From a virus (taxonomy: Duplodnaviria; Caudoviricetes), in the IMG/VR virus record IMGVR_UViG_3300037484_000235, positions 32,001 to 96,000 of that record: a stretch of 64,000 nucleotides of DNA; one strand, given 5' to 3'. The position numbers and the translations under genes are program-made. Below the pieces are notes generated by a model. That model saw nothing but the letters and a program-made list of their open reading frames with translations. It had not been told where the DNA came from and did no database searches. Every line of letters starts with the position of its first letter. Position 1 is the stretch's first letter. Of this stretch, positions 20,411 through 35,492 are shown one piece after another.

Positions 20411-20430
20411 GGTGGTTCTCTCACCTGTAT

Positions 20431-20460
20431 AACGGGCGAGTGGACCGGGATTACACGATT
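20431..20460 (-). promoter_or_regulatory. repeated promoter AATCGTGTAA-N16-CGTT
   Basis: motif read directly. Confidence 0.85.
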
Positions 20461-20511
20461 TCGGTCACTCCGTGTCTTCCGGCCAGGGATTGATCTGAAT
20501 TCCACGCACCC

Positions 20512-21051
20512 TCACTGAAATACAACCCCGCCGTGATCCCCAGCGTTGATGAGGGATACCTCCCACTTCTCGCACCACCGAAGGAACGCATCCCCGTGGC
20601 TATATGGGACCAAGCCAATCGAACTTGTGGCTTCTCCCATAGGCAGGGCGTTGGCGTAGCTGCGGATGACCCCAGCATGCTCTGCGAAGTCACGGGCAAG
20701 ACTCACGCAGTGGTCTCCACCAATCACACCCTCGCAGTCAGACATGGCAATCAGCCAGCCGAATGCCCGTTCGAAGACACTCGGGTCCGTCCATGTGAGA
20801 TGGTTGAACGCTGTGCAATCCATGCCGTGGATTGCCTGGGTAAGATGATCTCTCATCCTGGAATGACCCATGTAGGAGATGCTCGCGCCAGGCCAACGTT
20901 TCTCGGCCGTATAGAGCCCCGTCACCAAGCCCCCAGCGTTGCGGACGAAGTTGGGGTTGACGTAGACCCATACCTGGCCGTCGACTTCATTGAAGTGGTC
21001 AGTTGCCCGAGCCAACTGGAGTCCGCTGTACACCGTTGTGTCTAGTCCCAT
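20512..21051 (-). CDS. hypothetical protein
   Basis: 179 aa; SDCEG.IG motif. Confidence 0.65.
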   Translation of the reverse strand: MGLDTTVYSGLQLARATDHFNEVDGQVWVYVNPNFVRNAGGLVTGLYTAEKRWPGASISYMGHSRMRDHLTQAIHGMDCTAFNHLTWTDPSVFERAFGWLIAMSDCEGVIGGDHCVSLARDFAEHAGVIRSYANALPMGEATSSIGLVPYSHGDAFLRWCEKWEVSLINAGDHGGVVFQ

Positions 21052-21062
21052 GACGTGTTCTC

Positions 21063-21311
21063 TTACTCGATTTCGATTTTGGTGCGCTTGGCATCGTAAG
21101 CATATGCCGCCTGTGTGATCGCCAAGTTACCTACGGAGCACGCGACTCGCAGGTCATCAGCTGCCTTGAGGGCGTCAAAGACTGCATCCAGGTCATTGTA
21201 GACATTGAACTCCCTACGCTGGGCCTGTGCCTTCTGTTTGATGGTGCGTCCAACCGACTCCGTGGCGAAGTACTTACGGATGATGGCTCGAAACTGATTG
21301 TGTGTTGTCAT
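21063..21311 (-). CDS. hypothetical protein
   Basis: 82 aa. Confidence 0.6.
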   Translation of the reverse strand: MTTHNQFRAIIRKYFATESVGRTIKQKAQAQRREFNVYNDLDAVFDALKAADDLRVACSVGNLAITQAAYAYDAKRTKIEIE

Positions 21312-21365
21312 GCGATGCGCTCGTTGGTGGTCCCAGGCTTGATGAGACCATGAGGACTACACGAT

Positions 21366-21815
21366 TCACCAGAGATCTTCCGAGTAGAGAATCTTTCCGA
21401 TGGGGTAGCCTGGGTCTCTCAAAGGCTGCTTTGCGGCCTTGGCAAGCTTAGCCGCTACCCCACGCGTCACATACCGCCCGTGACTTGTTACGAAGCCCTG
21501 GCTCCTGCCCTGAACATTGAGAGAGTGCAGCCCCAAATGGAACAGTCGCTGCCGCATGATTGTGTCGTGTCGACCGGGGCGTCTAATGCTCCAAATCTCC
21601 CCATCGATACGCATGGCCGCTTGAAAGACAGTCTCTACTTCCCCAGGAAGCACGGGGTGCTCAAGCATTTCCCCCACGGGTGTGCGGCTCAAGAGCAGGG
21701 TGCGACCGCATCCCGCACAGGCGCCGCAGTAGCCATGGTCTACAGCCGGGCCCGTGTTGCCCGTGCCCGAACAGTGCAGGCAGGGGATGCCATAGGTCTT
21801 CAGGTAGGGGTTCAC
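21366..21815 (-). CDS. conserved phage protein (QGF.TS.GR...SEDLW family) with N-terminal Cys-rich repeat
   Basis: CLHCSGTG..CGACAGCG; RPGRHD; QGFVTSHGRYV; LYSEDLW. Confidence 0.65.
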   Translation of the reverse strand: MNPYLKTYGIPCLHCSGTGNTGPAVDHGYCGACAGCGRTLLLSRTPVGEMLEHPVLPGEVETVFQAAMRIDGEIWSIRRPGRHDTIMRQRLFHLGLHSLNVQGRSQGFVTSHGRYVTRGVAAKLAKAAKQPLRDPGYPIGKILYSEDLW

Positions 21816-22135
21816 AGCATAGCCTCTATCACCAGGGCCCTGAGATCCACCTTGGAGAAACCATTGGGGGCAACGACGTATACACCCTCAGGGGTCTCCA
21901 GCAGGTCACCCACCGAAGTCGAGCGCGGGCTCTGGAGGGTCAGCATCTTCACACCGTCCGCCTTGGACCAATCCGAATCAATGTGCTGGCTGGCCTTGAA
22001 GGCATCTCCAAGAGATGGAACCTCCAGAACGGCCACCGCATCGAAGTTCACGAGAGGCGCGACCTCACCGCACGAGACAGCCCAGCGAACGTTCCTACTC
22101 GCATCCGACCGAAGGTGAAAGACTGTGACTCGCAT
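21812..22135 (-). CDS. YodL-like domain protein
   Basis: RSTSVGDLL....YVVAPNGF motif. Confidence 0.55.
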   Translation of the reverse strand: MRVTVFHLRSDASRNVRWAVSCGEVAPLVNFDAVAVLEVPSLGDAFKASQHIDSDWSKADGVKMLTLQSPRSTSVGDLLETPEGVYVVAPNGFSKVDLRALVIEAML

Positions 22136-22154
22136 GTGTGTTCCTCACCGGTGT

Positions 22155-22184
22155 AACGCTTGGCCTACCATCGATTACACGATT
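22155..22184 (-). promoter_or_regulatory. repeated promoter AATCGTGTAA-N16-CGTT
   Basis: motif read directly. Confidence 0.85.
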
Positions 22185-22193
22185 GCGTGTACG

Positions 22194-22511
22194 TCACTTA
22201 CACCTGATGATGGAGACTTTCACCAGACGGCCGAATGACGCACGCTGCGTACGTGCAATCGAGCGGGCGAGGTCCATCCGCTGCCTTCGCTTCTCGCGGA
22301 AGATGAGGCGCCAGGGCTTGTCGATGATGAGTTTGTTGATCTCCTCCTGGACGCGCTGCTCCCGCTCGGCATCGGTCATCAGGTCGGACCACATCGCCAC
22401 CGACGCTCGCCGGATTGCCGTGATGCGGCAATGCAGTTCCACATCACGGCTCTGCTCCGCCCTCTTGAGTTGACGCGCCCACCGACGGCGCTTCTTCGAC
22501 GCAATGCTCAC
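22194..22511 (-). CDS. hypothetical basic protein
   Basis: 105 aa coupled. Confidence 0.55.
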   Translation of the reverse strand: MSIASKKRRRWARQLKRAEQSRDVELHCRITAIRRASVAMWSDLMTDAEREQRVQEEINKLIIDKPWRLIFREKRRQRMDLARSIARTQRASFGRLVKVSIIRCK

Positions 22512-23248
22512 AGACAGGGGTCCCCGCAGTTAGCACAGCCCCCATTGATACCGCGTCGTTCGTTGTTGCAGCACGCCGCATCGGGCTTGTTCGGGTCGTT
22601 CTGAGCGTCAAGGGCTTCTTGCCCCGTCAGACGCGGGTTGTACTCGTTGTACACCTGACGGTACGTACCATCCGCCTGTAGAACGTACCCGTCGGACTCC
22701 AGATCTGCATGCAGCAGATCACGGTCCTGCTTGCGCATCGCAAGCACATAGGGGTGGGTGTCCATATTGCGGCGAAGCCACCCCTCATGGTGCTCCCCCG
22801 CCCCAAGTCGTCCCTCCCCACTCCCGTGCCGCCCTGCAAAGAAGCTGAGGGCCCGGCGCAGCATCTTCTCCTGGTCTGCCAGGAACGAGAGGGCGTCATC
22901 CCGGGTCTGACCCCGCACAGGACACACAGCCATGCGTGCTGCATCCACCACGGCCCACAGCTGCTCCCAGACCTCCGGGTGACAGTCTGGACGCTCTGGC
23001 CCCGCACCGGCCTTCACCTTCCCGTAGGTGGCAAGGGAGGGACCGTCGCCGTTCGTGAGATCACCAAGCCGTGCAAGGAGCGCGGCCTTCGCCGTGGCAG
23101 CTCGCTCCACCTTCTCCGCAGGGGTGAGTGCCCGGTGCCGCCAGCACTTGCCGTCGTACTTGCCAGGCAGCTTGCACCCGTCGGAGATGGTGCCTCGCCC
23201 CACATGCTCCATGCAGTCGGGAACAGTCTTCTTCTTGGTCTTAGTCAT
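22508..23248 (-). CDS. hypothetical protein
   Basis: 246 aa, Cys motifs at both ends; first after promoter. Confidence 0.7.
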   Translation of the reverse strand: MTKTKKKTVPDCMEHVGRGTISDGCKLPGKYDGKCWRHRALTPAEKVERAATAKAALLARLGDLTNGDGPSLATYGKVKAGAGPERPDCHPEVWEQLWAVVDAARMAVCPVRGQTRDDALSFLADQEKMLRRALSFFAGRHGSGEGRLGAGEHHEGWLRRNMDTHPYVLAMRKQDRDLLHADLESDGYVLQADGTYRQVYNEYNPRLTGQEALDAQNDPNKPDAACCNNERRGINGGCANCGDPCL

Positions 23249-23267
23249 GTATCTTCCTCACCAGTGT

Positions 23268-23297
23268 AACGGGCGGGACTCAGCCGATTACACGATT
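23268..23297 (-). promoter_or_regulatory. repeated promoter AATCGTGTAA-N16-CGTT
   Basis: 28/30 identical to 18858-18887. Confidence 0.85.
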
Positions 23298-23311
23298 GCC
23301 CTAGGTCGTAT

Positions 23312-23536
23312 TCATCGACCCCTTGCTGACACACCATTGAGCAGATCGGCTGCTTCACGGAGTGATTCCGCATGGTGGTAGTTTGAGTTCTCGTCACGAT
23401 CCGCTTGGTTCAGGAGGCGTTCCTGTGCAGCAAACACACCCATCTGCCACGCTTCGTGGAGAGCGCGACGGAACTCGCGCTTTGTCTTCGGTAGCGTCGC
23501 TAGTGCGTCGCCGTACTTGGGTAGCGGCTTGGTCAT
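23312..23536 (-). CDS. hypothetical protein
   Basis: 74 aa after promoter. Confidence 0.65.
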   Translation of the reverse strand: MTKPLPKYGDALATLPKTKREFRRALHEAWQMGVFAAQERLLNQADRDENSNYHHAESLREAADLLNGVSARGR

Positions 23537-23555
23537 GGGTTTTCCTCACCAAGGT

Positions 23556-23585
23556 AACGGATGGCCTTTTGCGAAGTACACGATT
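23556..23585 (-). promoter_or_regulatory. promoter variant AATCGTGTAC-N16-CGTT
   Basis: motif read directly. Confidence 0.75.
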
Positions 23586-23587
23586 CC

Positions 23588-24367
23588 TCAGGCTGTGCTC
23601 TTCTCGATGAAGAGCACGCAGGTGTTGACGAGGGTGCCGCTCTCCCGGAATGACCCAGGGTGCAAGTCGGTGATTGTGCCCCCCGCCTCACTCACCCAAG
23701 TACGGAACTCCGCATGCCGCCGATCCTGACGGAAGAGAACGCTAGAGGGCAGGACACACACGAGGATGCCACCTACCTTGAGGAGTCGGTACGCGAGCCG
23801 AGCGTGGTCAAGATGATCATTCAGGTTGATCTTGCAGAACGGGGGGTTCATCACCACACGATCGAACTCAGGCGTGAATACGCTGCCCCCAAATCCCATT
23901 TCCATGAAGTCATCGATCGGAGACACATCACATACGTCAGGGAATGTCTTGACGAGGTGGTGCCGCATCTTCTGATCGCGCTCAATGGCCCACACCTTCC
24001 CGGCGCCAGCTGCGATCAACGCACGTACGATGTTTCCAGTTCCAGCACTGGGCTCTAGACAGATGTGTCCAGATTCAACTCCTGCCATGCCCACCAGTTC
24101 GATTGCTAGCTGAGGCGGTGTAGGGAAAAACCCGATGTCCTTGTGCGTCGTGACCTCACCCATGAGGATGGCTTGATCAATGCGTTCTGCCGCATCCCCA
24201 TCAAAGACGTGGGCCTTGGCCTTGCGTTCCCACTTGCCACCTAGGGCTGTGAGCACTTCGTTCACCTTGGTGTAGAGTTTGCGGTCTAGTTGATCAACAA
24301 TGACCGCTTGATTTCCTACGCACTTGACGGTCGACAGGACGATCTGGACTTCGGGAGAGATCTTCAT
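23588..24367 (-). CDS. SAM-dependent (N6-adenine-type) DNA methyltransferase, orphan
   Basis: FFPTP, LEPSAGTG, VVMNPPF, FRESGT. Confidence 0.85.
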   Translation of the reverse strand: MKISPEVQIVLSTVKCVGNQAVIVDQLDRKLYTKVNEVLTALGGKWERKAKAHVFDGDAAERIDQAILMGEVTTHKDIGFFPTPPQLAIELVGMAGVESGHICLEPSAGTGNIVRALIAAGAGKVWAIERDQKMRHHLVKTFPDVCDVSPIDDFMEMGFGGSVFTPEFDRVVMNPPFCKINLNDHLDHARLAYRLLKVGGILVCVLPSSVLFRQDRRHAEFRTWVSEAGGTITDLHPGSFRESGTLVNTCVLFIEKSTA

Positions 24368-24739
24368 TTAGCTGCGTGCTCCAGGATACCGTATGTTGTA
24401 CTTCGTCATGAACTTCGCACGGGACTCTTTGGCTTCCTTTTCGAAGGTCTCCGCTAGTTTTCGAAGAAGGAAGGCCTCATCGGTCTTGCCGTCTGCGAAC
24501 GACTTCCCAGATAGCTCACGGAATCGGGGCCAGAAGTCTTCTTGCATAGAGACCTGGCCCAGTTCGAAGTTCTTAGTCCTCAGGGTTTCGAGAGGGTCCC
24601 CCTCAGACTCATCGCCTAGATCCCCGTTGAGAGCGTTGTTGTGAAAGCCAATCGGACACACGAAATTGACGCAGTGTTCGTAGCTCTGTTCCTCGCACAC
24701 CAAACACTTGGAACTCTTTCCGTCTTTTGCTTTGCTCAC
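24368..24739 (-). CDS. hypothetical protein
   Basis: GTG start overlapping upstream stop. Confidence 0.55.
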   Translation of the reverse strand: MSKAKDGKSSKCLVCEEQSYEHCVNFVCPIGFHNNALNGDLGDESEGDPLETLRTKNFELGQVSMQEDFWPRFRELSGKSFADGKTDEAFLLRKLAETFEKEAKESRAKFMTKYNIRYPGARS

Positions 24740-24999
24740 GTTGGTACCTCTTCCAGGGGCCATGAAATTGCAGGCCAGTAGGCAACGACTCCCTTGCCCA
24801 TATTGTCAGTAGTCGGGCGGAACCCAACCACTGAGGTAAGTTCGCCGGCCTCCACGTTGCTGTGCACGCGGACTGATACACAGAGCCCACCATGCATACC
24901 ACGACCAGAGTAGGGCTCAGGCTCGTATCCTGCGGTATCGAGTGCCACGATGACGGCTTCCAAATCGGAAGCGCGTCCCACATAAAAACGCCTGGTCAT
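24736..24999 (-). CDS. hypothetical protein
   Basis: YSGRGM.G..C motif, common in phage ORFs. Confidence 0.65.
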   Translation of the reverse strand: MTRRFYVGRASDLEAVIVALDTAGYEPEPYSGRGMHGGLCVSVRVHSNVEAGELTSVVGFRPTTDNMGKGVVAYWPAISWPLEEVPT

Positions 25000-25196
25000 C
25001 TGTAGCCTCTGTCGGATAGCTCTTTTCGTACGGACTTCACGGCCTTTAGCCGTGTCTTGTAGGTCTCTTTAGGGACTTCTCGTGTTCCGTCTTCTGTTTC
25101 CGTAAGCCACTCGTATTGACCACAGAGAGACTCTTCCAGGTATGCCTCTAGGCGTCGAAGAACGAAGCGACGTGCTTCTTGGTACTCAGTGCTCAC
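24996..25196 (-). CDS. hypothetical protein
   Basis: 66 aa coupled. Confidence 0.6.
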   Translation of the reverse strand: MSTEYQEARRFVLRRLEAYLEESLCGQYEWLTETEDGTREVPKETYKTRLKAVKSVRKELSDRGYR

Positions 25197-25612
25197 CTGG
25201 TTACCGTTGATTCAGGCGGCGTTGTTTTCCAAGTGTCTCCAGTTGAAAGGTCGGCAATCTTGACCAGATCGGTGGATCGAGCAATGATTCTCTCAAGTGC
25301 AGCTCGCGGGTCATTAGTGTGACCATCTCGGATGTTCATGGCGTCCATCTTGATGCTCTGGGCGCACGAGATGACCTGCATCATGGGAGTATCCTGCTTG
25401 AACACAGGTCCCTCTTCCGGCAGGTCCATCCACTTCTCCCAGTGGACTTCAAGTGCTCGTAGCAGGTGCTGACCCGCCCCGTTCCGCAGTAGAATAGCGA
25501 TTCGAGAGGAGAGGGGGAGTTGCTCCATCCACCGAGTCTTGTCTTCTCTGGTGAGCATGTGCTCGACCAGTTCGATGCTGTGGTGTCCGAAGCCCTTCTT
25601 ATTGGTGGTCAT
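25193..25612 (-). CDS. hypothetical protein
   Basis: start MTTNKKG. Confidence 0.6.
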   Translation of the reverse strand: MTTNKKGFGHHSIELVEHMLTREDKTRWMEQLPLSSRIAILLRNGAGQHLLRALEVHWEKWMDLPEEGPVFKQDTPMMQVISCAQSIKMDAMNIRDGHTNDPRAALERIIARSTDLVKIADLSTGDTWKTTPPESTVTR

Positions 25613-25929
25613 GACGATTTGAATCTGAGTGTGATGGGATCCGTGATCGAGTCCCACTGGTCGTCCAGCCTGTTGAGAAGGGCGCACCGAAGGCACTTAC
25701 GATCTCTCTGACGATTGGTGTCCGTGCACCGGTAGTCGTGCTGCACAATTCCCAGGATGGTCTTAGGATTCTCCAGGAAGAGCACGAGGAAGGCACTCTG
25801 GGCGGCAGCCTCCTTGGCTTCAAGCGCAAGGCGCTCCGCCTTCTCCCGAGCCTCACGATCATCGTTGCGGCGCTTGGCCTCAGCGAAGATCTCCACGTCG
25901 GTGAACTTCTTGATGTCAGCCACGGTCAT
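25609..25929 (-). CDS. hypothetical protein
   Basis: start MTVADIK. Confidence 0.6.
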   Translation of the reverse strand: MTVADIKKFTDVEIFAEAKRRNDDREAREKAERLALEAKEAAAQSAFLVLFLENPKTILGIVQHDYRCTDTNRQRDRKCLRCALLNRLDDQWDSITDPITLRFKSS

Positions 25930-26203
25930 TGATCTCCCTCTGGGCAGTGGACAGCTCGACCGCAGATTCCAGCGCCAACACAGCCTCATCATGCAGGTAC
26001 CTGGGCATCACGCCGAGTCCCTCTTCCACGATCAGCTCCAGGGCTTCCTGCATCTTCAGCATGCGTTCGCGCTCTTGCTTGGTCATCATGGGGGTGTCCA
26101 GTACTTCGGTTGGCCACTCAATGGACGTCGCTGTGCAATCTGCCTTGGGGCCAATCTTGCGTGGTACTCGGAGCGTCTTCGTCCTGGGCTTCTTTTCGGT
26201 CAT
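25916..26203 (-). CDS. hypothetical protein
   Basis: 95 aa. Confidence 0.6.
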   Translation of the reverse strand: MTEKKPRTKTLRVPRKIGPKADCTATSIEWPTEVLDTPMMTKQERERMLKMQEALELIVEEGLGVMPRYLHDEAVLALESAVELSTAQREINDRG

Positions 26204-26211
26204 GACAATTC

Positions 26212-26433
26212 TCAGCGTCGATGGGGGTAATACATTCGAAGATACTTCTCAGAGATGCGCCATGGTTGAACGCTTCTTGGGGGTGGATTTACGCTCTCCA
26301 CCAGAAGCATCCCTTGCTCGTTGGGCTCGTACTCCGGGAATTTCCCACAAGTTCCTACGATGATCACACCGGATGAGGAATCCACTCCTGGCTCCCATCT
26401 TTGACCAACCTGGAGTTCCTCAGGATCCGTCAT
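26212..26433 (-). CDS. hypothetical protein
   Basis: 73 aa. Confidence 0.55.
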   Translation of the reverse strand: MTDPEELQVGQRWEPGVDSSSGVIIVGTCGKFPEYEPNEQGMLLVESVNPPPRSVQPWRISEKYLRMYYPHRR

Positions 26434-26699
26434 CGCTTGGACATCCTAACGGGTGATTTCTTCTTGACGGGCATCCCGCCGCGAATGGTGAGCACCTTGC
26501 CGTGTAGGTTGCTCAGAGCTTCAATCGGCGTGTCCCCCTGTGCCTGTGTGTTGACGATGTTCTGCCAACCCGCGCTGGACAACACGGTGTAGCCAGCGTA
26601 CCAAAACAGGACACCCTTCTTGTCGATCACAGGACCGAGCTTTACCCGACGGCGAGTCATCCAGGCAAACCACTCAGCCTCAGTCTTGGGTGTCTTCAT
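26430..26699 (-). CDS. hypothetical protein
   Basis: 89 aa coupled. Confidence 0.6.
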   Translation of the reverse strand: MKTPKTEAEWFAWMTRRRVKLGPVIDKKGVLFWYAGYTVLSSAGWQNIVNTQAQGDTPIEALSNLHGKVLTIRGGMPVKKKSPVRMSKR

Positions 26700-26887
26700 G
26701 CCTTGTATCCCCTTGCCTTGTATCCCCTTGCCTTGTACGCCTTTAGATCAGCTTTCAGAATGCAGATGCTGCAAGTCCCGCATTCGTCTTCGCACTCACG
26801 GAGCCCTACGACCATTTCTGCGGAATAAATCAGATTCCACAGGAGGTCTGCCTTGGTCTTGCGAGGGGTCTTCGTCTTGGTCGTCAT
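26696..26887 (-). CDS. hypothetical protein with YKARG tandem repeat
   Basis: first ORF after promoter; ends YKARGYKARGYKA. Confidence 0.65.
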   Translation of the reverse strand: MTTKTKTPRKTKADLLWNLIYSAEMVVGLRECEDECGTCSICILKADLKAYKARGYKARGYKA

Positions 26888-26906
26888 GGGCTTTCCTCAC
26901 CTAAAT

Positions 26907-26936
26907 AACGGGTCAGCCCCCAGGGATTACACGATT
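26907..26936 (-). promoter_or_regulatory. repeated promoter AATCGTGTAA-N16-CGTT
   Basis: motif read directly. Confidence 0.85.
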
Positions 26937-26982
26937 CCGGGCCTGTGTAACGAACGGACCCATTCCACCCAAACCAGCGGAT

Positions 26983-27243
26983 TCACCGCCCTTTCATTCG
27001 CTGGCCATGCCGCTTGCGTTGTTCACGTTCAATGCGCTTTCGTTCGTGGGTCTTGCCCTGGGGTCCTACCGATTTGCCCTTGTTGTAACACCACTTAGGC
27101 AGAGTGGGAGGCATCGGAAGATCCTCGTGCTGCACTGGTCGCACTTCGAGCAGTATCACTGGATCGTTGCGATGCTGACGCAGCAGCTCGGCCTGAAGAG
27201 CTACTTCGGCAACCATGAGTAGGACAGTCTTGGGGCTTCTCAC
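26983..27243 (-). CDS. hypothetical protein
   Basis: 86 aa. Confidence 0.5.
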   Translation of the reverse strand: MRSPKTVLLMVAEVALQAELLRQHRNDPVILLEVRPVQHEDLPMPPTLPKWCYNKGKSVGPQGKTHERKRIEREQRKRHGQRMKGR

Positions 27244-27246
27244 GGG

Positions 27247-27516
27247 CTAGTCCTTCGGGAAGTCGAATTTGTCGACTGTGGCTGCCTTCCAGGCTCGAAG
27301 TTCCTCAAAGTCACGAAGCTCGTACTCCGTGACCTGGCCCGGGTAGATGTCCGAGATGTATAGGCGCTGGCCGTAGCAATCCACAACCCAATCTCCCACA
27401 CGGAACTCCCGGCGAACCTTGCGAAGCTCTTCTGCGACGAGCTTTTGGAGAGCGAGGGTCAGTTGGTCTGCCACCTTGGAGGGGAGTTCGTCTGGGATGT
27501 CTAGTGTGATTTTCAT
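27247..27516 (-). CDS. hypothetical protein
   Basis: 89 aa; ribbon-helix-helix-like start, FRVGDWV. Confidence 0.6.
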   Translation of the reverse strand: MKITLDIPDELPSKVADQLTLALQKLVAEELRKVRREFRVGDWVVDCYGQRLYISDIYPGQVTEYELRDFEELRAWKAATVDKFDFPKD

Positions 27517-27884
27517 GCGGGGGTCTTTCGGTCTTGAGCGTGCTGGAAGGCTGTCTCAGGGCTTGCCTGCTCCAAAAGGTTGTTCCATGCCTCAGCAGCG
27601 ACCCTTGCCCTCTTGTTCGCCTCGAACGCAAGAGAACGCAGTCGCAAGTAAGCCGCATGCGCTTCTCGCAAACGAACGAGCATCTCAGCGTCGCACTCAC
27701 GCTTGTACTCAGTAGCTGCGCCCAAGGCGTCCTCAACCGTGGGACGGGCCCCACCCCGTTCATTGGCCGCAGCCGCAGCCTGGAACCCTGCCAGGACGTC
27801 TGGGTGGTCACTGGGGGGTACGTATCCGAACGAGACCCAGACCTTCCAGCCGGTGATAAACGCGGCGCGTTGGCAGGTGTTCAC
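27513..27884 (-). CDS. hypothetical protein
   Basis: 123 aa coupled. Confidence 0.6.
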   Translation of the reverse strand: MNTCQRAAFITGWKVWVSFGYVPPSDHPDVLAGFQAAAAANERGGARPTVEDALGAATEYKRECDAEMLVRLREAHAAYLRLRSLAFEANKRARVAAEAWNNLLEQASPETAFQHAQDRKTPA

Positions 27885-28114
27885 GACTCGCTCCCCGGGC
27901 CCCAGCGGTGGTCACAGGCGCAGCACCGGAACTCCTGGCGTGAGCCCTGGCACCCGTTGTCCTCAGTGTCCTTGCACCCGCAAGAGGGGCACTCGGAGCC
28001 CTCAGCTTGGCGCACAGACTTTGCGAGTGATCGGAGCTGGATCTGACGCTCCAGGTCCGTGAAGGGAGCAAGCAGGATACCGAGAGTGATTTGATCGATG
28101 GTCTTGGGGGTCAT
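27881..28114 (-). CDS. Zn-ribbon protein
   Basis: CPSCG..EDNG..FRCCACDHRW. Confidence 0.6.
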   Translation of the reverse strand: MTPKTIDQITLGILLAPFTDLERQIQLRSLAKSVRQAEGSECPSCGCKDTEDNGCQGSRQEFRCCACDHRWGPGSES

Positions 28115-28305
28115 GGGGCCTCCGGATGAAATGTGAGGTTGCTTGGACCAGCGTAATAGCCACTCTTGTATGCCTGCACCGCGTACCCACGCTCGTAACC
28201 AATGAGTCGGTCCGTAGGCCAGCCGTGCTCTACGGCCCAAGTTCGCGCCGCAACGAGCGTTGGCCAGTAGTAAATGCCGCGATGCGTCTTTAGCGTGTCG
28301 TCCAT
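28111..28305 (-). CDS. hypothetical protein
   Basis: AGGAG RBS, MDDTLKT. Confidence 0.65.
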   Translation of the reverse strand: MDDTLKTHRGIYYWPTLVAARTWAVEHGWPTDRLIGYERGYAVQAYKSGYYAGPSNLTFHPEAP

Positions 28306-28317
28306 AGTTCTCCTGAG

Positions 28318-28413
28318 TGGCGCTACATCACACACGCGGTGAGCCATGATCCCAAGGGTCGCCCTTGCTGGCCCTGGGTAGCGCCGTTCCTAGCGGTTCG
28401 TGTGCGGTGTAGC
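28318..28413 (-). ncRNA. candidate CCA-ended structured RNA (acceptor-like helix)
   Basis: GCUACA/UGUAGC + C.A + CGCACACG/CGUGUGUG, then G-CCA; internal hairpins; directly downstream of a promoter. Confidence 0.5.
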
Positions 28414-28428
28414 GTCTCTCACCTAGGT

Positions 28429-28458
28429 AACGGTTGAGCCCACCAGGATTACACGATT
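28429..28458 (-). promoter_or_regulatory. repeated promoter AATCGTGTAA-N16-CGTT (no ATG follows)
   Basis: motif read directly. Confidence 0.85.
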
Positions 28459-28463
28459 ACAGG

Positions 28464-28757
28464 CTATCGATCGTAGAACCTCGCGTTTGGGTTCTCACGA
28501 AGGAAATCACCAAGTTCTTTGATCTGCTCCTCAACCCACTCGGGTTTGCCCTCGAAAACTGCTGTGTTCCAGGGCTGCTTGACCCAATCCGGTTCTGGCC
28601 AAAGATTGCGAAGCCACTCACAGTAGGCTGCGTAGCGGGCCTGAGTCGTCGTGTGGGAGAGGATGCGGTAAGTCACCTCTGTAGGTGTCTGCGCCAAGCC
28701 CATCGTCTTGCGATGCTTGCCATGTGCGCCGTTATCGACCCCCAGATTCATACTCAT
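28464..28757 (-). CDS. hypothetical protein
   Basis: 97 aa; L.QTPT..T..IL motif. Confidence 0.65.
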   Translation of the reverse strand: MSMNLGVDNGAHGKHRKTMGLAQTPTEVTYRILSHTTTQARYAAYCEWLRNLWPEPDWVKQPWNTAVFEGKPEWVEEQIKELGDFLRENPNARFYDR

Positions 28758-28761
28758 GGTG

Positions 28762-28947
28762 TTAGCGTCCAGTCTCGTTGTCTACGACCGTCTCGATGGT
28801 GTCCCCACCTTCGGGAGTCTGCGCCACACGCACCGCCACACACTCTTGGCAGCACCAAATGACCAGACGCCCTTGACCGCTCTTGGTCTCTAGCTCGGGC
28901 CGACGACCCCAGCGGTGGGTCACGCAGAACTGCTTGATCGTGGTCAT
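28762..28947 (-). CDS. hypothetical protein
   Basis: first ORF after promoter, MTTIKQF. Confidence 0.65.
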   Translation of the reverse strand: MTTIKQFCVTHRWGRRPELETKSGQGRLVIWCCQECVAVRVAQTPEGGDTIETVVDNETGR

Positions 28948-28964
28948 GATGTCCTCACCTGTAT

Positions 28965-28994
28965 AACGGTCGGGGACCAGAGGATTACATGATT
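28965..28994 (-). promoter_or_regulatory. promoter variant AATCATGTAA-N16-CGTT
   Basis: motif read directly. Confidence 0.8.
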
Positions 28995-29002
28995 CAGGAC
29001 CA

Positions 29003-29156
29003 AATCCACTCCTACAAGCTGCCCTCGACCCCAGCTCCACCCCCGGCCTAGGATGGGGGCTTCTTTGACTGGTAGGTTAGGTCGTGATTGCAATCACACC
29101 TACTGCGGCTTTTGCATGCCGGAGCCCATTTCGAGAGCAGCTTGTAGAAGTGGATT
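29003..29156 (-). ncRNA. candidate structured RNA: 26-bp terminal stem enclosing a multibranch core
   Basis: arms 29003-29028 and 29131-29156 are reverse complements at 24/26; both mismatches become G.U on the minus strand. Confidence 0.55.
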
Positions 29157-29173
29157 CTTAGCGCTGAGGGACC

Positions 29174-29395
29174 TCATGACTTCCTCAGCTTTGCCAGCTC
29201 GGTTTCCATCCGGTCCCCGAATGCAGCCGCTTCCTTGAAGAGGATTCCAAGATCCCCGGGGATCTGCTCACCCACCTTCTCAAAAGGAACGGATTGCAGT
29301 TGCCGAACGGCTTCTTCAAGATTTCGTCGCATATCGCGCACGATACGTTCCCGTTCGTTTAGAGGCAGACCCTCCCATGTCGTAGAGGTGCTCAT
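29174..29395 (-). CDS. hypothetical protein
   Basis: 73 aa. Confidence 0.6.
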   Translation of the reverse strand: MSTSTTWEGLPLNERERIVRDMRRNLEEAVRQLQSVPFEKVGEQIPGDLGILFKEAAAFGDRMETELAKLRKS

Positions 29396-29400
29396 GGCCC

Positions 29401-29706
29401 TCAGGTGTCCTCTCGCATGCCACCACGAAGGCGGTCTGCTACGTCTTCGAGGCCCCGTCGGAGACTCGGTGGCATCTCCGTGCCCTCGATCATCTTGAGC
29501 GCCGACTCACAGATGTTCTTGAAGCGGGCCCGTGCGCTCTTGCCCGTGGACTTGGGCAGCCCGTAGGCCGTTGCCGCATGGCAGTCCGCCAGGTAGAGGG
29601 CGATGCTCTTCCAGTGAGCGGCCTCCTGCTCCGCCGTGGTGACGGCTGCGCTCAGGCGGTCGATGCGCTCGTTGCTGGTCTCAGGCTTGGTGAGATCGTG
29701 GGTCAT
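29401..29706 (-). CDS. hypothetical protein
   Basis: first ORF after promoter. Confidence 0.7.
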   Translation of the reverse strand: MTHDLTKPETSNERIDRLSAAVTTAEQEAAHWKSIALYLADCHAATAYGLPKSTGKSARARFKNICESALKMIEGTEMPPSLRRGLEDVADRLRGGMREDT

Positions 29707-29728
29707 TTGACGGTTCCCTCACCTGTAT

Positions 29729-29758
29729 AACGGGTGAGGGCCAGACGATTACACGACG
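29729..29758 (-). promoter_or_regulatory. repeated promoter with 11-bp tandem duplication of the upstream box (second box 29760-29769)
   Basis: ACGATTACACG-ACGATTACACG-ATT on +. Confidence 0.8.
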
Positions 29759-29768
29759 ATTACACGAT

Positions 29769-30554
29769 TCATCGGCGAGGATACTGCGGGCGAGGGATCT
29801 TCCCACCCCCAGCAAGCAGGTCCATGGGCACCTCTGTGCCGAACTTGCTTCCACCAGTGATCCGCACGAATCCCGGAGGTAGACCCGGATCTCGGTGCAC
29901 CCGGCCAAGGGCCTGTGTCACATCCCCCAGAGGCATTCCAGGAGTCCGACGCACCGTGGACTTGTCCGACGGACGTACCGGGCGCTCCTCATTGCGGATG
30001 ATGGTCTTCGTGACCCCGGCCCGCATCGCAGCCTCAAGCTGGTCCATGACGGCCATGCGCCCCGCTCGGGACTGAGGTGGTGTAGGCGCAATCTCAGGCA
30101 CCTTGCAGCGGCCACAACACGGGCCGAGGTGCTCGTCTTCTGCTGCATTGCACTCAGGCTCCGCAGGTTGGCCAAAAGGGAGTGCTTCCAGTTCGTGCCG
30201 GGCGATGCGGCGGCCCACGATGTTGACCTGGCGCAGGTCAGTGGCAATAGCCGTGAGAGCGAGTACAAGAGGGTGAGTCTCCCCGTCGAAGTGCTCCACG
30301 TAGCGGCTGCGTTCGACCTTGAGACGTCCAAGAGCAATCTTCTTGCCCTTCTCACGATCGAACACCTCACCTGGGATGAGATACGTGAAGAACGTGTCTG
30401 GCAGGGGCCCAGGCTCAGTTACCCAGTGCGGGGGCTTGTTGACGGAGTACGCGATGTAGAGCGACGAGCCCTTGATTTGAGTCACGAGGGTCATGACTCG
30501 GTCTGGATTGCGCAGGTCTTGGATGTATCGAATCTTGGTATTTGGAGTAGTCAT
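29769..30554 (-). CDS. hypothetical protein
   Basis: start MTTPNTK; two-part ORF. Confidence 0.6.
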   Translation of the reverse strand: MTTPNTKIRYIQDLRNPDRVMTLVTQIKGSSLYIAYSVNKPPHWVTEPGPLPDTFFTYLIPGEVFDREKGKKIALGRLKVERSRYVEHFDGETHPLVLALTAIATDLRQVNIVGRRIARHELEALPFGQPAEPECNAAEDEHLGPCCGRCKVPEIAPTPPQSRAGRMAVMDQLEAAMRAGVTKTIIRNEERPVRPSDKSTVRRTPGMPLGDVTQALGRVHRDPGLPPGFVRITGGSKFGTEVPMDLLAGGGKIPRPQYPRR

Positions 30555-30577
30555 TGTGTTCTCTACGCTCTTTGAAG

Positions 30578-31216
30578 TCAAGATTTGTGCTTCCAGTCAG
30601 CGAAAAGCGTGAGCCACTCTTCGAATGGTACAAAGCGATCGTACGTCCACCATCCACCAGCCTCGTTTGCGTAGTCCATCAAACTAGCCAGCTCCCTCTC
30701 AGTTACGAGACCCATTCCGTACTTAAGGTCTCCACTGCCACAGGCGGCTTCCCACAGATCGGATTCAATCTCCGAACTCCAACCAGCGCACCACGTCTCT
30801 TCAGAGATTTCCCGAATACGGCTATCCAGGAGAAGTGCAGCATTCTGGTTCCGTGCCTCACGTAATGAGGCCTCACGTGCGCCCATACGATTCTTCTGGA
30901 TCTCAGCATGTCTAGCGAGACCATCCTCAGCGATCACACGTTGTGTCGGCCAACACATATCGCAACAATCTGACGGCTGCCACACCATCACATCCTGTTC
31001 TTCCGGGATGTTGTCGGACCAACGGTCGTAGAATTTACCGCAGTGCTTACACGTGCAGCATTGTTCGGCGTGCGCACGGCTACCCTCGGCATATCGAGCC
31101 ACGTTCTCATCTGTATTCGAGGTCATGCACGTGCCTGCACCTCCGATGTGACGACACTTGCTGCACACCCAAGCATAGGTCACACCATCTGGTCCGAACA
31201 ATCGGAACGCTTCCAT
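30578..31216 (-). CDS. hypothetical protein with CxxC motifs
   Basis: 212 aa. Confidence 0.6.
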   Translation of the reverse strand: MEAFRLFGPDGVTYAWVCSKCRHIGGAGTCMTSNTDENVARYAEGSRAHAEQCCTCKHCGKFYDRWSDNIPEEQDVMVWQPSDCCDMCWPTQRVIAEDGLARHAEIQKNRMGAREASLREARNQNAALLLDSRIREISEETWCAGWSSEIESDLWEAACGSGDLKYGMGLVTERELASLMDYANEAGGWWTYDRFVPFEEWLTLFADWKHKS

Positions 31217-31219
31217 CTT

Positions 31220-31642
31220 CTACCCCTTTGTCCAAGTCCAAACGTACGAGGCTGTCTTGAATCCAGCGCTCCGAACCCGCTTCTTCTTGAAACCATTTTT
31301 CTCGTAGAACCTCTGTTGGTCTTCTGGGTTTGCCCCATACCCACCCGGCACAACATGTACCTTTGTGGCACCCATCGAGACTGCCTTCTCCAGTGCGAGA
31401 TTCAACAGTGTGGACCCGATGCCCTTGCCCCTTACCTCTGGAGATCCTTGCACTATAGCCCTAGCTACCCACCAGTCCTCAGGGCCCCCGAGAGTGTCTA
31501 GGTCGACAGTCCCACGATTCATCCCGGCATACCAGGAAGCTGAGCAGGATTGTCCATGCCCTTGGACGACAACCTTGCCTGGTGGGAGACTCGGGTTTGC
31601 GAGGAGTAGTGTTTCGGACTCCTGGGTCTGTTGCGTTACCAC
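31220..31642 (-). CDS. GNAT-family acetyltransferase
   Basis: VRGKGIGSTLL motif A; FYEKNGF motif B. Confidence 0.8.
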   Translation of the reverse strand: MVTQQTQESETLLLANPSLPPGKVVVQGHGQSCSASWYAGMNRGTVDLDTLGGPEDWWVARAIVQGSPEVRGKGIGSTLLNLALEKAVSMGATKVHVVPGGYGANPEDQQRFYEKNGFKKKRVRSAGFKTASYVWTWTKG

Positions 31643-31649
31643 GGGTGAT

Positions 31650-32075
31650 TTACTCTTCCGGTACCAAATCTGTCTTGCCAGTCAGGTAGTCGAGAAGATC
31701 GAGACGCCCACCGTAATTGGCCCGGATCGTCTTTCTTCCGAGAAATCTATGGGCATAGATCCTGTGCCACCCGTCAATAATCACTGGGATGGGGTAGACA
31801 TTACCCCCATCACACACGTTGTCCACGCTGATGGGATCTTCAAGGCCCTCTGGATTTAATAATATCCAACGGATTCTGGCGACGTGCCATCTTCGGTAAG
31901 CTGGGATCTCTGGGTCATCCGGCCGAGTGGTGTGGTCCCCTGCGCCGAGGACCCCGATGTCCTTGTTTGATGCCTTGCTGACAGATCTGAGTGTGAGGCG
32001 CGGACTGCATCCCCAGGGATCTTCCCCCTTGGGGATGAATTTTGATAGGCGAGAGAGGATGAGTACATCAGACAT
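31650..32075 (-). CDS. ParB/sulfiredoxin-like domain protein
   Basis: PISVD...IIDGWHR..A; start could be 32141. Confidence 0.7.
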   Translation of the reverse strand: MSDVLILSRLSKFIPKGEDPWGCSPRLTLRSVSKASNKDIGVLGAGDHTTRPDDPEIPAYRRWHVARIRWILLNPEGLEDPISVDNVCDGGNVYPIPVIIDGWHRIYAHRFLGRKTIRANYGGRLDLLDYLTGKTDLVPEE

Positions 32076-32316
32076 GGGAACCACCGGGTAGGTGTGGAAG
32101 GAGTCCGTTCTCTCGAAGCCACGCTTTCTCGTCTTGCTCAAACTTGTCGCTGTCCATTCGAATCAGGTACAGGGCCTGGTCGTACCCATCTTGAGCAGTG
32201 ACGACAGATCCATCCCAGCTCACTGGGGATCTCATTGCCCCGATCGCCTTGTTGAGAACCGGGTGATTTCGATTCTCGTTGTAGGCTTCCAGCTTGGAGA
32301 GCAGGCCGTCCATCAC
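32068..32316 (-). CDS. hypothetical protein
   Basis: 82 aa coupled. Confidence 0.55.
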   Translation of the reverse strand: MMDGLLSKLEAYNENRNHPVLNKAIGAMRSPVSWDGSVVTAQDGYDQALYLIRMDSDKFEQDEKAWLRENGLLPHLPGGSHV

Positions 32317-32489
32317 CCCTCCTTAAACATCTCGTCGGCCAGCCTTCGAACAGCACTGGCTGAAAGCTCGTAAGCGATTGCGCAGCCGTCATCGAAGTCA
32401 CCTTCCGCGTTCTGCCTGGAGGACTTGGCGTCATGCTCCAGCTTGGCAGCGAGAGCTTCGAGCTTCTTCACGGTCTTGAACTTGTCCAT
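32313..32489 (-). CDS. hypothetical protein
   Basis: start MDKFKTV. Confidence 0.6.
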   Translation of the reverse strand: MDKFKTVKKLEALAAKLEHDAKSSRQNAEGDFDDGCAIAYELSASAVRRLADEMFKEG

Positions 32490-32908
32490 CAGCAGTGCTC
32501 CCAATCGTAGGCCACTAGGCGGCCATCCTTGGTTGTCCCGACTTGCCCGCAGTCCACCGACCACGTCCAATCAGCTTTCTCCGACCAACCTACGTGCTTG
32601 ACGGACTCCATGCGTAAAATCGGCAATCCGAACCTCGTGGACAGTTCCTGGTCGAACCAAGCACGGGCCCGAGGCTCCCACTGGTTATCACACGTATGTT
32701 CCTCGTAGCAGTTGGCATCGATCCCACTCAGGACGGTGGGAACCTTGATTACAGTGTCACCATCACGGAAGACTGCCCGGTGACGACCCACCATAGGCTC
32801 TCCAAAGACCTGGGTGAGTGCGGCACGGGCCTGCTCAAAGAGACATGGGTCCGGCTCGATGCACACCTCGACTGGGCGGGGCTTGGGGCGTTGCTTGGGC
32901 GGATGCAC
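32489..32908 (-). CDS. small protein-kinase-like fold protein
   Basis: GRHRAVF, VIKVP, ANCYE, D..Q.G....G.LVAYD. Confidence 0.55.
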   Translation of the reverse strand: MHPPKQRPKPRPVEVCIEPDPCLFEQARAALTQVFGEPMVGRHRAVFRDGDTVIKVPTVLSGIDANCYEEHTCDNQWEPRARAWFDQELSTRFGLPILRMESVKHVGWSEKADWTWSVDCGQVGTTKDGRLVAYDWEHC

Positions 32909-32912
32909 AGGA

Positions 32913-33107
32913 TCACTCCTTCAGGGCACGGAGGGCCACGCATGCCATGCGAAGTTCCTCCCGCTCAAGCGACGTGCGGTGCCTCAGGACGACCTTGTTG
33001 CGCCGCGCAGACTTCAGCGTCGAGTAGGTCGGACGGTGGCGAAAGCCCATCGTGACCTTGTACTCGAAGTGCTCGATCGCTTCCAGGGTCTTCTTGGTGG
33101 GGGTCAC
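32913..33107 (-). CDS. hypothetical basic protein
   Basis: GTG after GAGGA RBS and promoter. Confidence 0.6.
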   Translation of the reverse strand: MTPTKKTLEAIEHFEYKVTMGFRHRPTYSTLKSARRNKVVLRHRTSLEREELRMACVALRALKE

Positions 33108-33127
33108 GGTGTCTTCCTCGTCTAGAT

Positions 33128-33158
33128 AACGGGTGACCCACCCATAGATTACACGATC
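33128..33158 (-). promoter_or_regulatory. repeated promoter GATCGTGTAA-N17-CGTT
   Basis: motif read directly. Confidence 0.75.
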
Positions 33159-34927: not shown

Positions 34928-34957
34928 AACTCTTGGGATCGCCCTGTTTTCACGATC
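34928..34957 (-). promoter_or_regulatory. promoter variant GATCGTGAAA-N16-AGTT
   Basis: motif read directly. Confidence 0.6.
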
Positions 34958-35492
34958 AGATCGTCGGAACAGTCGGTTCCGCGGATTCCTCAGCTACCAC
35001 AGGGGCGACAGCCTTGGGCGCCTTCGGTGCCTTGGGCGCCTTGGGGGCCTTCGGTGCCTTGGGGGCCTTCGGTGCCTTGGGGGCCTTCGGTGCCTTGGGG
35101 GCCTTCGGTGCCTTGGGTGCCTTGGGTGCCTTGGGTGCCTTGGGCTCCTTCGGTGCCTTCGGTGCCTTGACAGGCATCTTCGGGAGTTCCGCACGTCCCT
35201 CTGCCACATCCCATCCAAGTGAAGTCAACTTGGACTTGCGACCATCGGATACGATGACACCACGCTGACGGAGGCTGAAAAGTGCGTTGCTCATCGGGAT
35301 GAGAACCGCAGCTCTCTTGTCCTTGAGACCCATGCAATCGAGCGTGAGGTTCAGGGACGCCAGTGCGTGATTTGCGAAGTCCATGAACTGGTGCCAGGAA
35401 TCCCTGTCGGCCTTGCCGAGTTCGGCTAGGGAGGCGTAGATTGGCTTGATGAGATCGCCCTGCGAAACCGTCTTTGTCGTTGTATTCGTCAT
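34956..35492 (-). CDS. winged-helix protein with histone-H1-like (KAP)n tail
   Basis: shares DCMGLKDKR.AVLIPMSNA with 33989-34876; about 17 K[A/E]P units. Confidence 0.75.
   Translation of the reverse strand: MTNTTTKTVSQGDLIKPIYASLAELGKADRDSWHQFMDFANHALASLNLTLDCMGLKDKRAAVLIPMSNALFSLRQRGVIVSDGRKSKLTSLGWDVAEGRAELPKMPVKAPKAPKEPKAPKAPKAPKAPKAPKAPKAPKAPKAPKAPKAPKAPKAPKAPKAVAPVVAEESAEPTVPTI
35011..35168 (-). repeat. 9-bp coding tandem repeat (18 units, higher-order 18-bp unit)
   Basis: GCCTT/TCCTT recurs every 9 bp from 35011 to 35164. Confidence 0.95.

Follow-up and report, generated by a model that had tools for sequence, protein, structure and literature searches.

In the genome of an uncultured huge phage, an intergenic element of 154 nt proves to be real, conserved and portable; most likely it is a structured RNA that is handled through its long stem. 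It lies at positions 29003-29156 of the window, the stretch of 64,000 nucleotides that was analysed, which forms part of an IMG/VR virus record of 252,521 bp with an estimated completeness of 57% (here called G000); the phage is present in freshwater or groundwater samples. Comparison with a homologous element in a related phage (G001) indicates that the architecture is kept, with a stem of about 26 bp, an inner box and a spacer of about 103 nt, while the body is not, and that selection clearly maintains the pairing of the ends, the 12-bp box and the spacer length. The element is neither a retron nor a classical MITE, the two likenesses named by the initial annotation. Our tentative reading is that of a portable structured-RNA module, whose long helix would act as a stalk for processing by a double-strand RNase or for stability.

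A long terminal helix in an intergenic gap

The element is bounded by two 26-nt arms, complementary at 24 of 26 positions, which enclose a spacer of 102 nt (Table 1). At the two mismatched positions the plus strand has C.A and the minus strand G.U, and in the predicted minus-strand fold all 26 arm positions are consecutively paired (24 Watson-Crick and two G.U pairs). The initial annotation had described the repeat and its mismatches in these terms, and both hold. Its conclusion that the G.U pairs speak for selection at the RNA level is weaker than was stated, as two transitions would give this outcome about 1 time in 4 by chance and wobble pairs also occur inside the element in the plus-strand fold. 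An inverted-repeat search of the whole record returned this repeat as the longest, with a runner-up matching at 16/18 positions; by our own estimate, about 1e-4 inverted repeats of at least 24/26 within 500 nt are expected by chance. The further copies that the initial annotation proposed to look for with BLASTn were not found in the record, in which BLAST and a covariance model give a copy number of one; this count, like the one for G001, refers to a partial record (45-57% complete for the two).

Table 1. Features of the element and its surroundings. Positions refer to the window unless another record is named.
Feature	Position	Strand	Basis or remark
Terminal helix, 5' arm (as minus-strand RNA)	29131..29156	-	Inverted repeat I1, 26 nt, 92% complementary; fold
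Terminal helix, 3' arm	29003..29028	-	Inverted repeat; fold
Box AAGCTGCCCTCG, inner end of left arm	29016..29027	.	Exact AAGCTGCNCTCG search; same register in both G001 arms
Box, second inverted copy (AAGCTGCTCTCG on minus strand)	29132..29143	.	Exact AAGCTGCNCTCG search
Interior, 102 nt	29029..29130	-	Multiloop closed by GGCUCC/GGAGCU (29121-29126 with 29033-29038), three hairpins; minimum-energy fold
Hairpin 1, GGC-AUGCAAAA-GCC	29107..29120	-	Minimum-energy fold
Hairpin 2, around palindrome GTGATTGCAATCAC (29084-29097)	29078..29102	-	Repeat search; fold
Hairpin 3, CCCCC..GGGGG, loop containing CCUAGG	29039..29060	-	Inverted repeat I5; fold
Upstream gene B, ORFan	29174-29395	-	Last gene of two-gene unit with 29401-29706(-)
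Promoter motif of gene B unit	29728-29753	-	Motif scan
Phage promoter motif (AATCATGTAATCC..ACCGTTATAC)	28960..28996 (motif at 28989-28964)	-	Immediately after element; then RBS AGGTGAGGA and gene C
Downstream gene C, 61 aa, Cys-rich ORFan	28762..28947	-	Exact product on record as called gene
G001 element	G001 28773-28924 = L017:8773-8924; also L008:20815-20966	+ (promoter-driven)	Inverted-repeat scan

The minus strand of the element has a predicted folding energy of -87.6 kcal/mol (z = -6.9) and the plus strand one of -77.1 kcal/mol (z = -5.4). When both strands of the record were scanned with a sliding fold of 160 nt, the element was the top minus-strand outlier among 6,300 scan windows (z = -5.9 against a GC regression), and on the plus strand it ranked second, behind a coding repeat. 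The better-folding strand in G000 is thus also the strand of the neighbouring genes; between about 19 and 36.8 kb of the window the genes, which are small ORFans, are all on the minus strand.

Within the helix, the minus-strand fold contains the GCUCC/GGAGC core and the three hairpins that the initial annotation had drawn, namely GGC-AUGCAAAA-GCC, the GUGAUUGCAAUCAC hairpin and CCCCC..GGGGG. At the DNA level, hairpins 2 and 3 are almost perfectly palindromic, their loops included. Folded alone, however, the 102-nt interior is no more stable than its shuffles (z = -0.3 on the minus strand and -1.1 on the plus strand), so that the four-way junction is a prediction at the level of chance. The repeat, the hairpins in the fold and the location in the gap are therefore the parts of the initial description that stand, and an interior structured above chance is the part that does not. 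A target search with 11-13-mers complementary to the loops and the linker gave no excess in the genome.

As initially annotated, the element fills the gap between the last stop codon of an operon and the next promoter: the gene B stop codon lies 17 nt ahead of it, and the promoter motif follows at a distance of about 7-13 nt. That motif, aATCrTGTAATC-N11-13-CCGTTAyay followed by AGGTGAGG and an ATG, occurs at least 15 times in the genome and mostly precedes small minus-strand ORFans (at 20430-33153 of the window and elsewhere); a scan of IMG/VR with it gave six unrelated single matches. The genes behind the promoter that follows the element are ORFans of 61 and 97 aa. For the first of these, gene C, no family match and no G001 homologue were found, and a homologue search with gene B returned gene B itself as the sole database match, an exact look-up being blank. 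Only the minus strand is plausibly transcribed at the element in G000.

Two further features of this region were noted. At the end of gene B, stop codon and ATG overlap (ATGA); this ATG, preceded by GAGGAAG, opens a frame of 25 codons (29103-29178, minus strand) that enters the 5' arm and hairpin 1. Ribosomes terminating or re-initiating at this ATGA would run into the stem, and if the element were taken out the frame would reach the ATGA at the start of gene C; the overlap is possibly due to chance. Separately, no start codon follows the promoter at 28453-28428 for about 125 nt, and in the predicted fold of this leader (28306-28430, minus strand; -50.2 kcal/mol, z = -2.7) a long-range helix encloses several hairpins. 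The gene behind it most likely starts at ATG 28305, after an AGGAG site, the 64-aa product being the one on record, and the layout of promoter, structured leader and gene resembles that of the G001 element.

Standard classes do not account for the element. An Rfam cmscan of 27000-31000, which the initial annotation had proposed, yielded no family at E values up to 10 apart from a sub-threshold match to a generic long hairpin (MIR7533, 30.7 bits against a gathering score of 230), which leaves no known ribozyme or riboswitch. ARAGORN returned nothing for the G000 or the G001 element, and a tRNA or tmRNA was discarded on these grounds. A coding function was rejected as well, as the plus-frame ORF runs antisense to gene B and is not preceded by a ribosome-binding site.

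The likeness to retron msr-msd RNAs, suggested initially from the terminal repeats (a1/a2 in retrons) around hairpins, does not hold. The initial annotation had seen no reverse transcriptase, and a search for RVT_1 (PF00078) at E values up to 0.1 gave no match, neither next to the element nor elsewhere in the 252-kb record (57% complete). No retron RNA model matched, the arms are twice the usual retron length, and the small ORFans downstream have a promoter of their own.

Compensatory change in a related phage

The closest phage record, G001, was found through the AAA_5 (MoxR-like) protein that G000 encodes 6.4 kb from its element (79% identity). Synteny between the two phages extends from the AAA_5 gene to the GNAT gene (31.3-31.6 kb of the window) and is then lost. 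The longest inverted repeat in G001 is a matching element, with arms that pair at 23/24 positions and can be extended to 27 (24-27 nt), around a spacer of 104 nt. Its fold gives z-scores of -7.8 and -7.5 on the two strands, and a single such element was found in this partial record. Independent assemblies from other samples contain it in identical or nearly identical form, which excludes an assembly artefact; three strain variants (L034, L036, L037) are 99-100% identical and so add no covariation.

With the two elements aligned at the inner end of the stem, 15 of 27 pairs have the same bases, 9-10 have different bases on both sides but pair nonetheless, and 1-2 no longer pair. The outer 13 pairs vary from one phage to the other, whereas the inner 13 are conserved at 11 positions (AAGCTGCGCTCGC in G001, AAGCTGCCCTCGA in G000). 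This inner part contains a box, AAGCTGCNCTCG, whose exact sequence occurs in G000 in the two arms only (0.12 occurrences expected) and in G001 in both arms and one further place. The interiors show no sequence similarity in either orientation. Because the non-conserved outer arms stay paired, the element is better explained as a folded single strand than as two protein-binding boxes. The suggestion in the initial annotation that the fold is under selection is supported by this covarying stem, and also by compensatory changes in the GUGAUUGCAAUCAC hairpin of a third copy described below.

The surroundings of the G001 element suggest that the folded strand is RNA. It sits between two back-to-back copies of the promoter consensus and a plus-strand gene. 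One promoter of the pair drives a 103-aa gene away from the element, like the promoter at 28989 in G000, and the other fires into it, the stem starting about 13 nt past the CGCTTAG box. The ATG of a 114-aa gene follows 11 nt past the stem, so that the element is placed between an RBS-like stretch and this ATG. The consensus firing into the element is a variant of the G000 motif (AATCGTGtAAA..CGCTT..GGTGAGG), with 12 matches in that genome, often as back-to-back divergent pairs that are themselves inverted repeats. The plus strand, which this promoter would transcribe, also folds better than the minus strand (-91.7 and -83.4 kcal/mol, respectively). On the same strand the element contains a strict canonical T-arm, GCUGG-UUCGAUU-CCAGC. 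Strict T-arms number 41 in G001, 38 of them within the tRNA array and none on the minus strand; we estimate the chance of one landing in the interior at about 1e-3. It is thus mainly G001, through promoter placement, T-arm and the better fold of the transcribed strand, that points to RNA.

The T-arm aligns with, and is nearly identical to, the T-arms of the YrlA RNAs of these phages, and this raises the question of a divergent Y RNA, that is, a ligand of the phage Ro60 protein whose tRNA-like body sits on a long stem. A TROVE/Ro60 gene and a YrlA-like RNA are present in both phages, and a long stem with a variable body defines the class (RF02553, RF02565; PMC4201824). We nevertheless regard this identity as highly improbable. 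With E values up to 10, neither copy matched the Rfam YrlA or YrlB models and the G001 copy did not match the tRNA model, while the same search mode recovers the true YrlA RNAs of the two phages at 59 and 48 bits. The stem of the element is perfect and has no counterpart to the interrupted Ro60-binding helix of Y RNAs, which is present in the YrlA of G000 itself. The G001 copy has no D-arm and no long acceptor-like stem, and no T-arm was found in the G000 copy, which has no tRNA-like part. Both elements lie outside the tRNA/Y RNA array and far from the Ro60 gene: in G000 the TROVE gene is at 114.5 kb and the element at 61.0 kb (the separation is also given as 85 kb), and in G001 they are at 85.6 and 28.8 kb, 57 kb apart. 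Elsewhere in G001, a T-arm with an acceptor-like 3' end is followed by a strong terminator hairpin (135017-135237, plus strand), far from the tRNA array, and may represent a tRNA-like or tmRNA-like 3' domain.

The promoter placement in G001 also bears on termination. In T4-type phages, stem-loops joined to early promoters (PeSL) terminate effectively and mark shuffling points (PMC2839356), and the element could be the terminator or attenuator half of such a cassette, insulating the promoter at 28989. It shares with PeSL the association of a stem-loop with an early promoter in a hyperplastic, ORFan-rich region whose cassettes are gained, lost and shuffled among relatives, and in G000 the order of stop codon, element and promoter, in a promoter-dense and non-syntenic region, would fit. 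We find this explanation improbable all the same. No U-tract follows the stem (GGAUUUGGUCC; AUUUGGUCC), a further reason why an intrinsic terminator was rejected, and a terminator-like site was predicted only once in 28000-30000, at an inner hairpin of the plus strand. Other promoter copies whose upstream sequence was read have no such stem-loop, the stop codons abutting the promoters, whereas PeSL are short G/C hairpins present at most cassettes. The element is unique, has its own box and is ten times the size of a PeSL stem-loop, and in G001, where it lies downstream of a promoter and upstream of the gene, a terminator would silence that gene.

A site that acts as DNA would be a cruciform-prone palindrome with two inverted 12-bp protein-binding boxes about ten helical turns apart, involved in replication initiation, promoter control or recombination at module boundaries. 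Several observations agree with such a site. One copy is found in each phage, the box is conserved while the rest drifts, the box spacing is constant (102 and 104 nt), and hairpins 2 and 3 are almost perfectly palindromic through their loops. In both phages the element is immediately behind an early-type promoter, in G001 within a divergent promoter region, and a more distant relative (L032) has a 22/22 repeat with a nested repeat in its divergent VWA/AAA region. A pair of boxes, however, leaves the complementarity of the non-conserved outer 13 bp unexplained, and the canonical T-arm on the promoter-driven strand points to RNA. The element is not AT-rich (GC content 0.55), has no iterons, lies away from the GC-skew turning point of the record and comes with no candidate binding protein. 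We therefore consider a DNA site distinctly unlikely.

Contexts of the element and searches for further members

Gene order around the two elements differs: the gene for the CCA-adding enzyme is 1.7 kb from the element in G001 and 14.5 kb away, on the opposite side, in G000. A third copy was found in a sequencing run (X2) that holds the G000 phage at 100% identity elsewhere, on a contig of 171 nt that matches 29005-29078 at 85% and has unrelated sequence before the position of 29005. Hairpin 2 is present in the same register, with GTGATTGCAATCAC replaced by GCGGTTGCAACCGC, a double-sided change of two pairs that leaves the TTGCAA centre and loop intact. On the minus strand of this copy a likely gene start follows within about 20 nt, and the promoter seen in G000 is missing. 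The public contigs aligned to the G000 region left a gap at 29079-29166, and none spanned the element; among the sequencing runs listed as containing the phage, none was of RNA. The family thus has three members, one of them a fragment, which lie 3' of a gene (G000), 5' of a gene (G001) and directly before a likely gene start (X2).

An orthologous site without the element was also identified. The 114-aa protein of G001 has a 63%-identical orthologue in two other assemblies (L040/L041), where a promoter of the same type is followed by an RBS and then directly by the ATG; the element is likewise absent from more distant homologues of this gene. The check for empty sites in relatives, proposed in the initial annotation, gave this element-free site, in lineages that are too distant for insertion, deletion and cassette exchange to be separated. 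Three contexts and one element-free orthologous site make the element, by its distribution, portable.

Portability is also what would be expected of a selfish, non-autonomous palindromic insertion (MITE-like or Correia-like) into promoter-adjacent intergenic DNA, tolerated since its ends pair and loop out, with incidental effects on the RNA. The Correia elements of Neisseria (CREE/NEMIS) have 26-bp terminal inverted repeats around a core, measure about 154 bp and are intergenic, often 5' of genes and by promoters; they are co-transcribed, and their presence or absence differs between relatives (PMC2649163). Their mRNA hairpin, formed by the 26-bp repeats, is known to be bound and cleaved by RNase III (PMC2649163). 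The phage element has the same repeat length, total size and promoter-near intergenic setting, and also varies in presence between relatives, with members in three unrelated contexts, a changed gene order and the element-free L040/L041 site; the agreement in repeat length and size is coincidental.

The differences lead us to doubt such an origin. A genome carries 100-250 Correia elements, which share a conserved core and have an IHF site, whereas the phage-borne element has one copy in each of two large records and unrelated interiors of conserved length. There is no sequence similarity between the two (a GTGGATT string is in the opposite orientation and due to chance). The inner part of the arms is conserved while the outermost termini, the normal targets of a transposase, vary. 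No direct repeat flanks the element in G000 (minus strand, ..GCGCTAAG / element / TTGGTCC..) or in G001 (..GAGAGAGGT / element / GCCAAAC..), in agreement with the initial annotation, which had seen no target-site duplication. The MITE likeness it proposed is therefore retained in the portability of the element and the element-free orthologous site, and a classical MITE is rejected by the single copy, the missing duplication and the outer termini that differ between relatives. No serine or tyrosine recombinase and no TnpB were found in the G000 record (Resolvase, Phage_integrase and TnpB zinc-ribbon searches). An inverton was rejected on the first two of these searches and on the lack of any phage promoter motif or sigma-70-like site inside the element.

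Wider searches returned no relative. Blastn against INPHARED phages, with 1.4 kb and with the element alone, was blank, and PLSDB plasmids gave chance matches of 27 nt only. Pattern scans of IMG/VR (palindrome, arm pair, and a hairpin-2 consensus that fits either of the known variants), JGI metagenomes (with an X2-type 30-mer and with gene B as anchor) and bacterial and archaeal GTDB genomes (arm pattern and hairpin-2 consensus) revealed no copy, and the translated element had no match among 5.8 billion proteins. A covariance model (R1) matched its own source in G000 and had no further match there, in G001 or in six other records; it was built from the G000 copy alone and missed the true G001 homologue, so its blanks mean little. 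Among relatives reached through the AAA_5 protein, either the contig ends just past that gene or no box-bearing repeat is present within 10 kb.

Some of these contigs have features of their own. In a more distant huge phage with a 68%-identical AAA_5 protein (ENA contig L032), the divergent VWA/AAA_5 intergenic region is occupied by a perfect 22/22 inverted repeat with a nested 16/17 repeat (L032:9589-9800). It forms a predicted hairpin of about 225 nt (-116 kcal/mol, z = -8.3) without a AAGCTGCNCTCG box, and a second repeat-closed element of 116 nt is found at L032:3406-3521. Three independent Logan assemblies of close relatives (L026, L027, L028) break 350-450 nt past the AAA_5 gene. In G000 this break point falls at a KAP-repeat gene (34956-35492), a repeat that probably cuts short-read assemblies of the lineage.

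A possible processing stalk and its meaning

The reading that we tentatively prefer is that of a structured-RNA module separated from its transcript through the terminal helix. Early genes and element would be co-transcribed, in G000 through read-through starting at the promoter at 29753 and in G001 from the element's own adjacent promoter. The paired ends would give a helix of about 26 bp, whose length and regularity would suit a host RNase III. RNase III acts on about 20 bp or more of uninterrupted double-stranded RNA, and 26 pairs are predicted in G000 and 24-27 in G001. Cleavage or binding of the outer, sequence-free part of the helix would separate the module from the flanking mRNA, which could set a stable 3' or 5' mRNA end and leave an RNA of about 110-130 nt. 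Such an RNA would retain the 12-bp inner helix (AAGCUGCNCUCG with CGAGNGCAGCUU) as a recognition handle, together with the variable body, which bears the T-arm in G001. The outer stem would then need only to pair, while the inner, conserved helix would stay with the released body. A self-contained module in early transcripts would fit a placement both 3' of a gene, as in G000, and 5' of a gene, as in G001, and the context-independent placement across G000, G001 and X2 argues for it.

RNase III stalks are familiar from the intercistronic sites of the T7 early region and from the long helices flanking pre-rRNAs. The element resembles them in having a helix of at least two turns, formed by sequences that flank a unit in a polycistronic transcript, with pairing kept over sequence, and it resembles the T7 sites in lying between early phage genes. 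The T7 sites, however, are short hairpins with an internal loop at several junctions, whereas here a single predicted helix of 26 bp encloses about 100 nt.

Several observations weigh against an RNA module and keep our preference tentative. Known phage RNase III sites punctuate many gene junctions, whereas there is one copy of the element per record. A DNA cruciform or single-stranded DNA hairpin would explain the compensatory evolution of the inverted repeat equally well. The interior in G000 is not significantly structured, has no T-arm and has nothing in common with that of G001, and, with respect to the flanking promoter that both phages share, it is not the same strand that folds better. 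At the orthologous gene, which works without it, the element is dispensable. Finally, the G000 record, 57% of the genome, gave no match to RNase III or dsrm domains, so that the enzyme would have to come from the host.

The element might represent a new class of modular phage non-coding RNA, in which a conserved 12-bp double-stranded handle (AAGCUGCNCUCG and its complement) on a processing stalk would be combined with a freely exchangeable body that measures about 100 nt and resembles a tRNA in one phage but not in the other. On the model of Y RNAs, the handle would recruit a protein and the body would choose the target, the whole moving as a cassette between promoter-proximal sites of the early region. 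We offer this as a speculative proposal that may well prove wrong.

Huge phages carry large RNA toolkits, which in G000 comprise about 50 tRNA genes, a TROVE/Ro60 gene with YrlA-like RNA and a CCA-adding enzyme. To our knowledge, almost nothing is known about how the long early transcripts of such phages are punctuated, or about their small RNAs. In this setting, the element stands out as the strongest minus-strand fold in 252 kb, matches no curated RNA family, and has an architecture that is conserved across phages whose surrounding genes are not. Its significance is modest for now, whether it is an RNA or an insertion. If it proves to be a palindromic insertion in single copy, it would be the unusual case of a Correia analogue carried by phages. 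If it is instead processed by an RNase and carries a protein-binding handle, it would be a compact natural 'excise-me' RNA cassette and would offer a testable entry into the RNA processing of uncultured huge phages.
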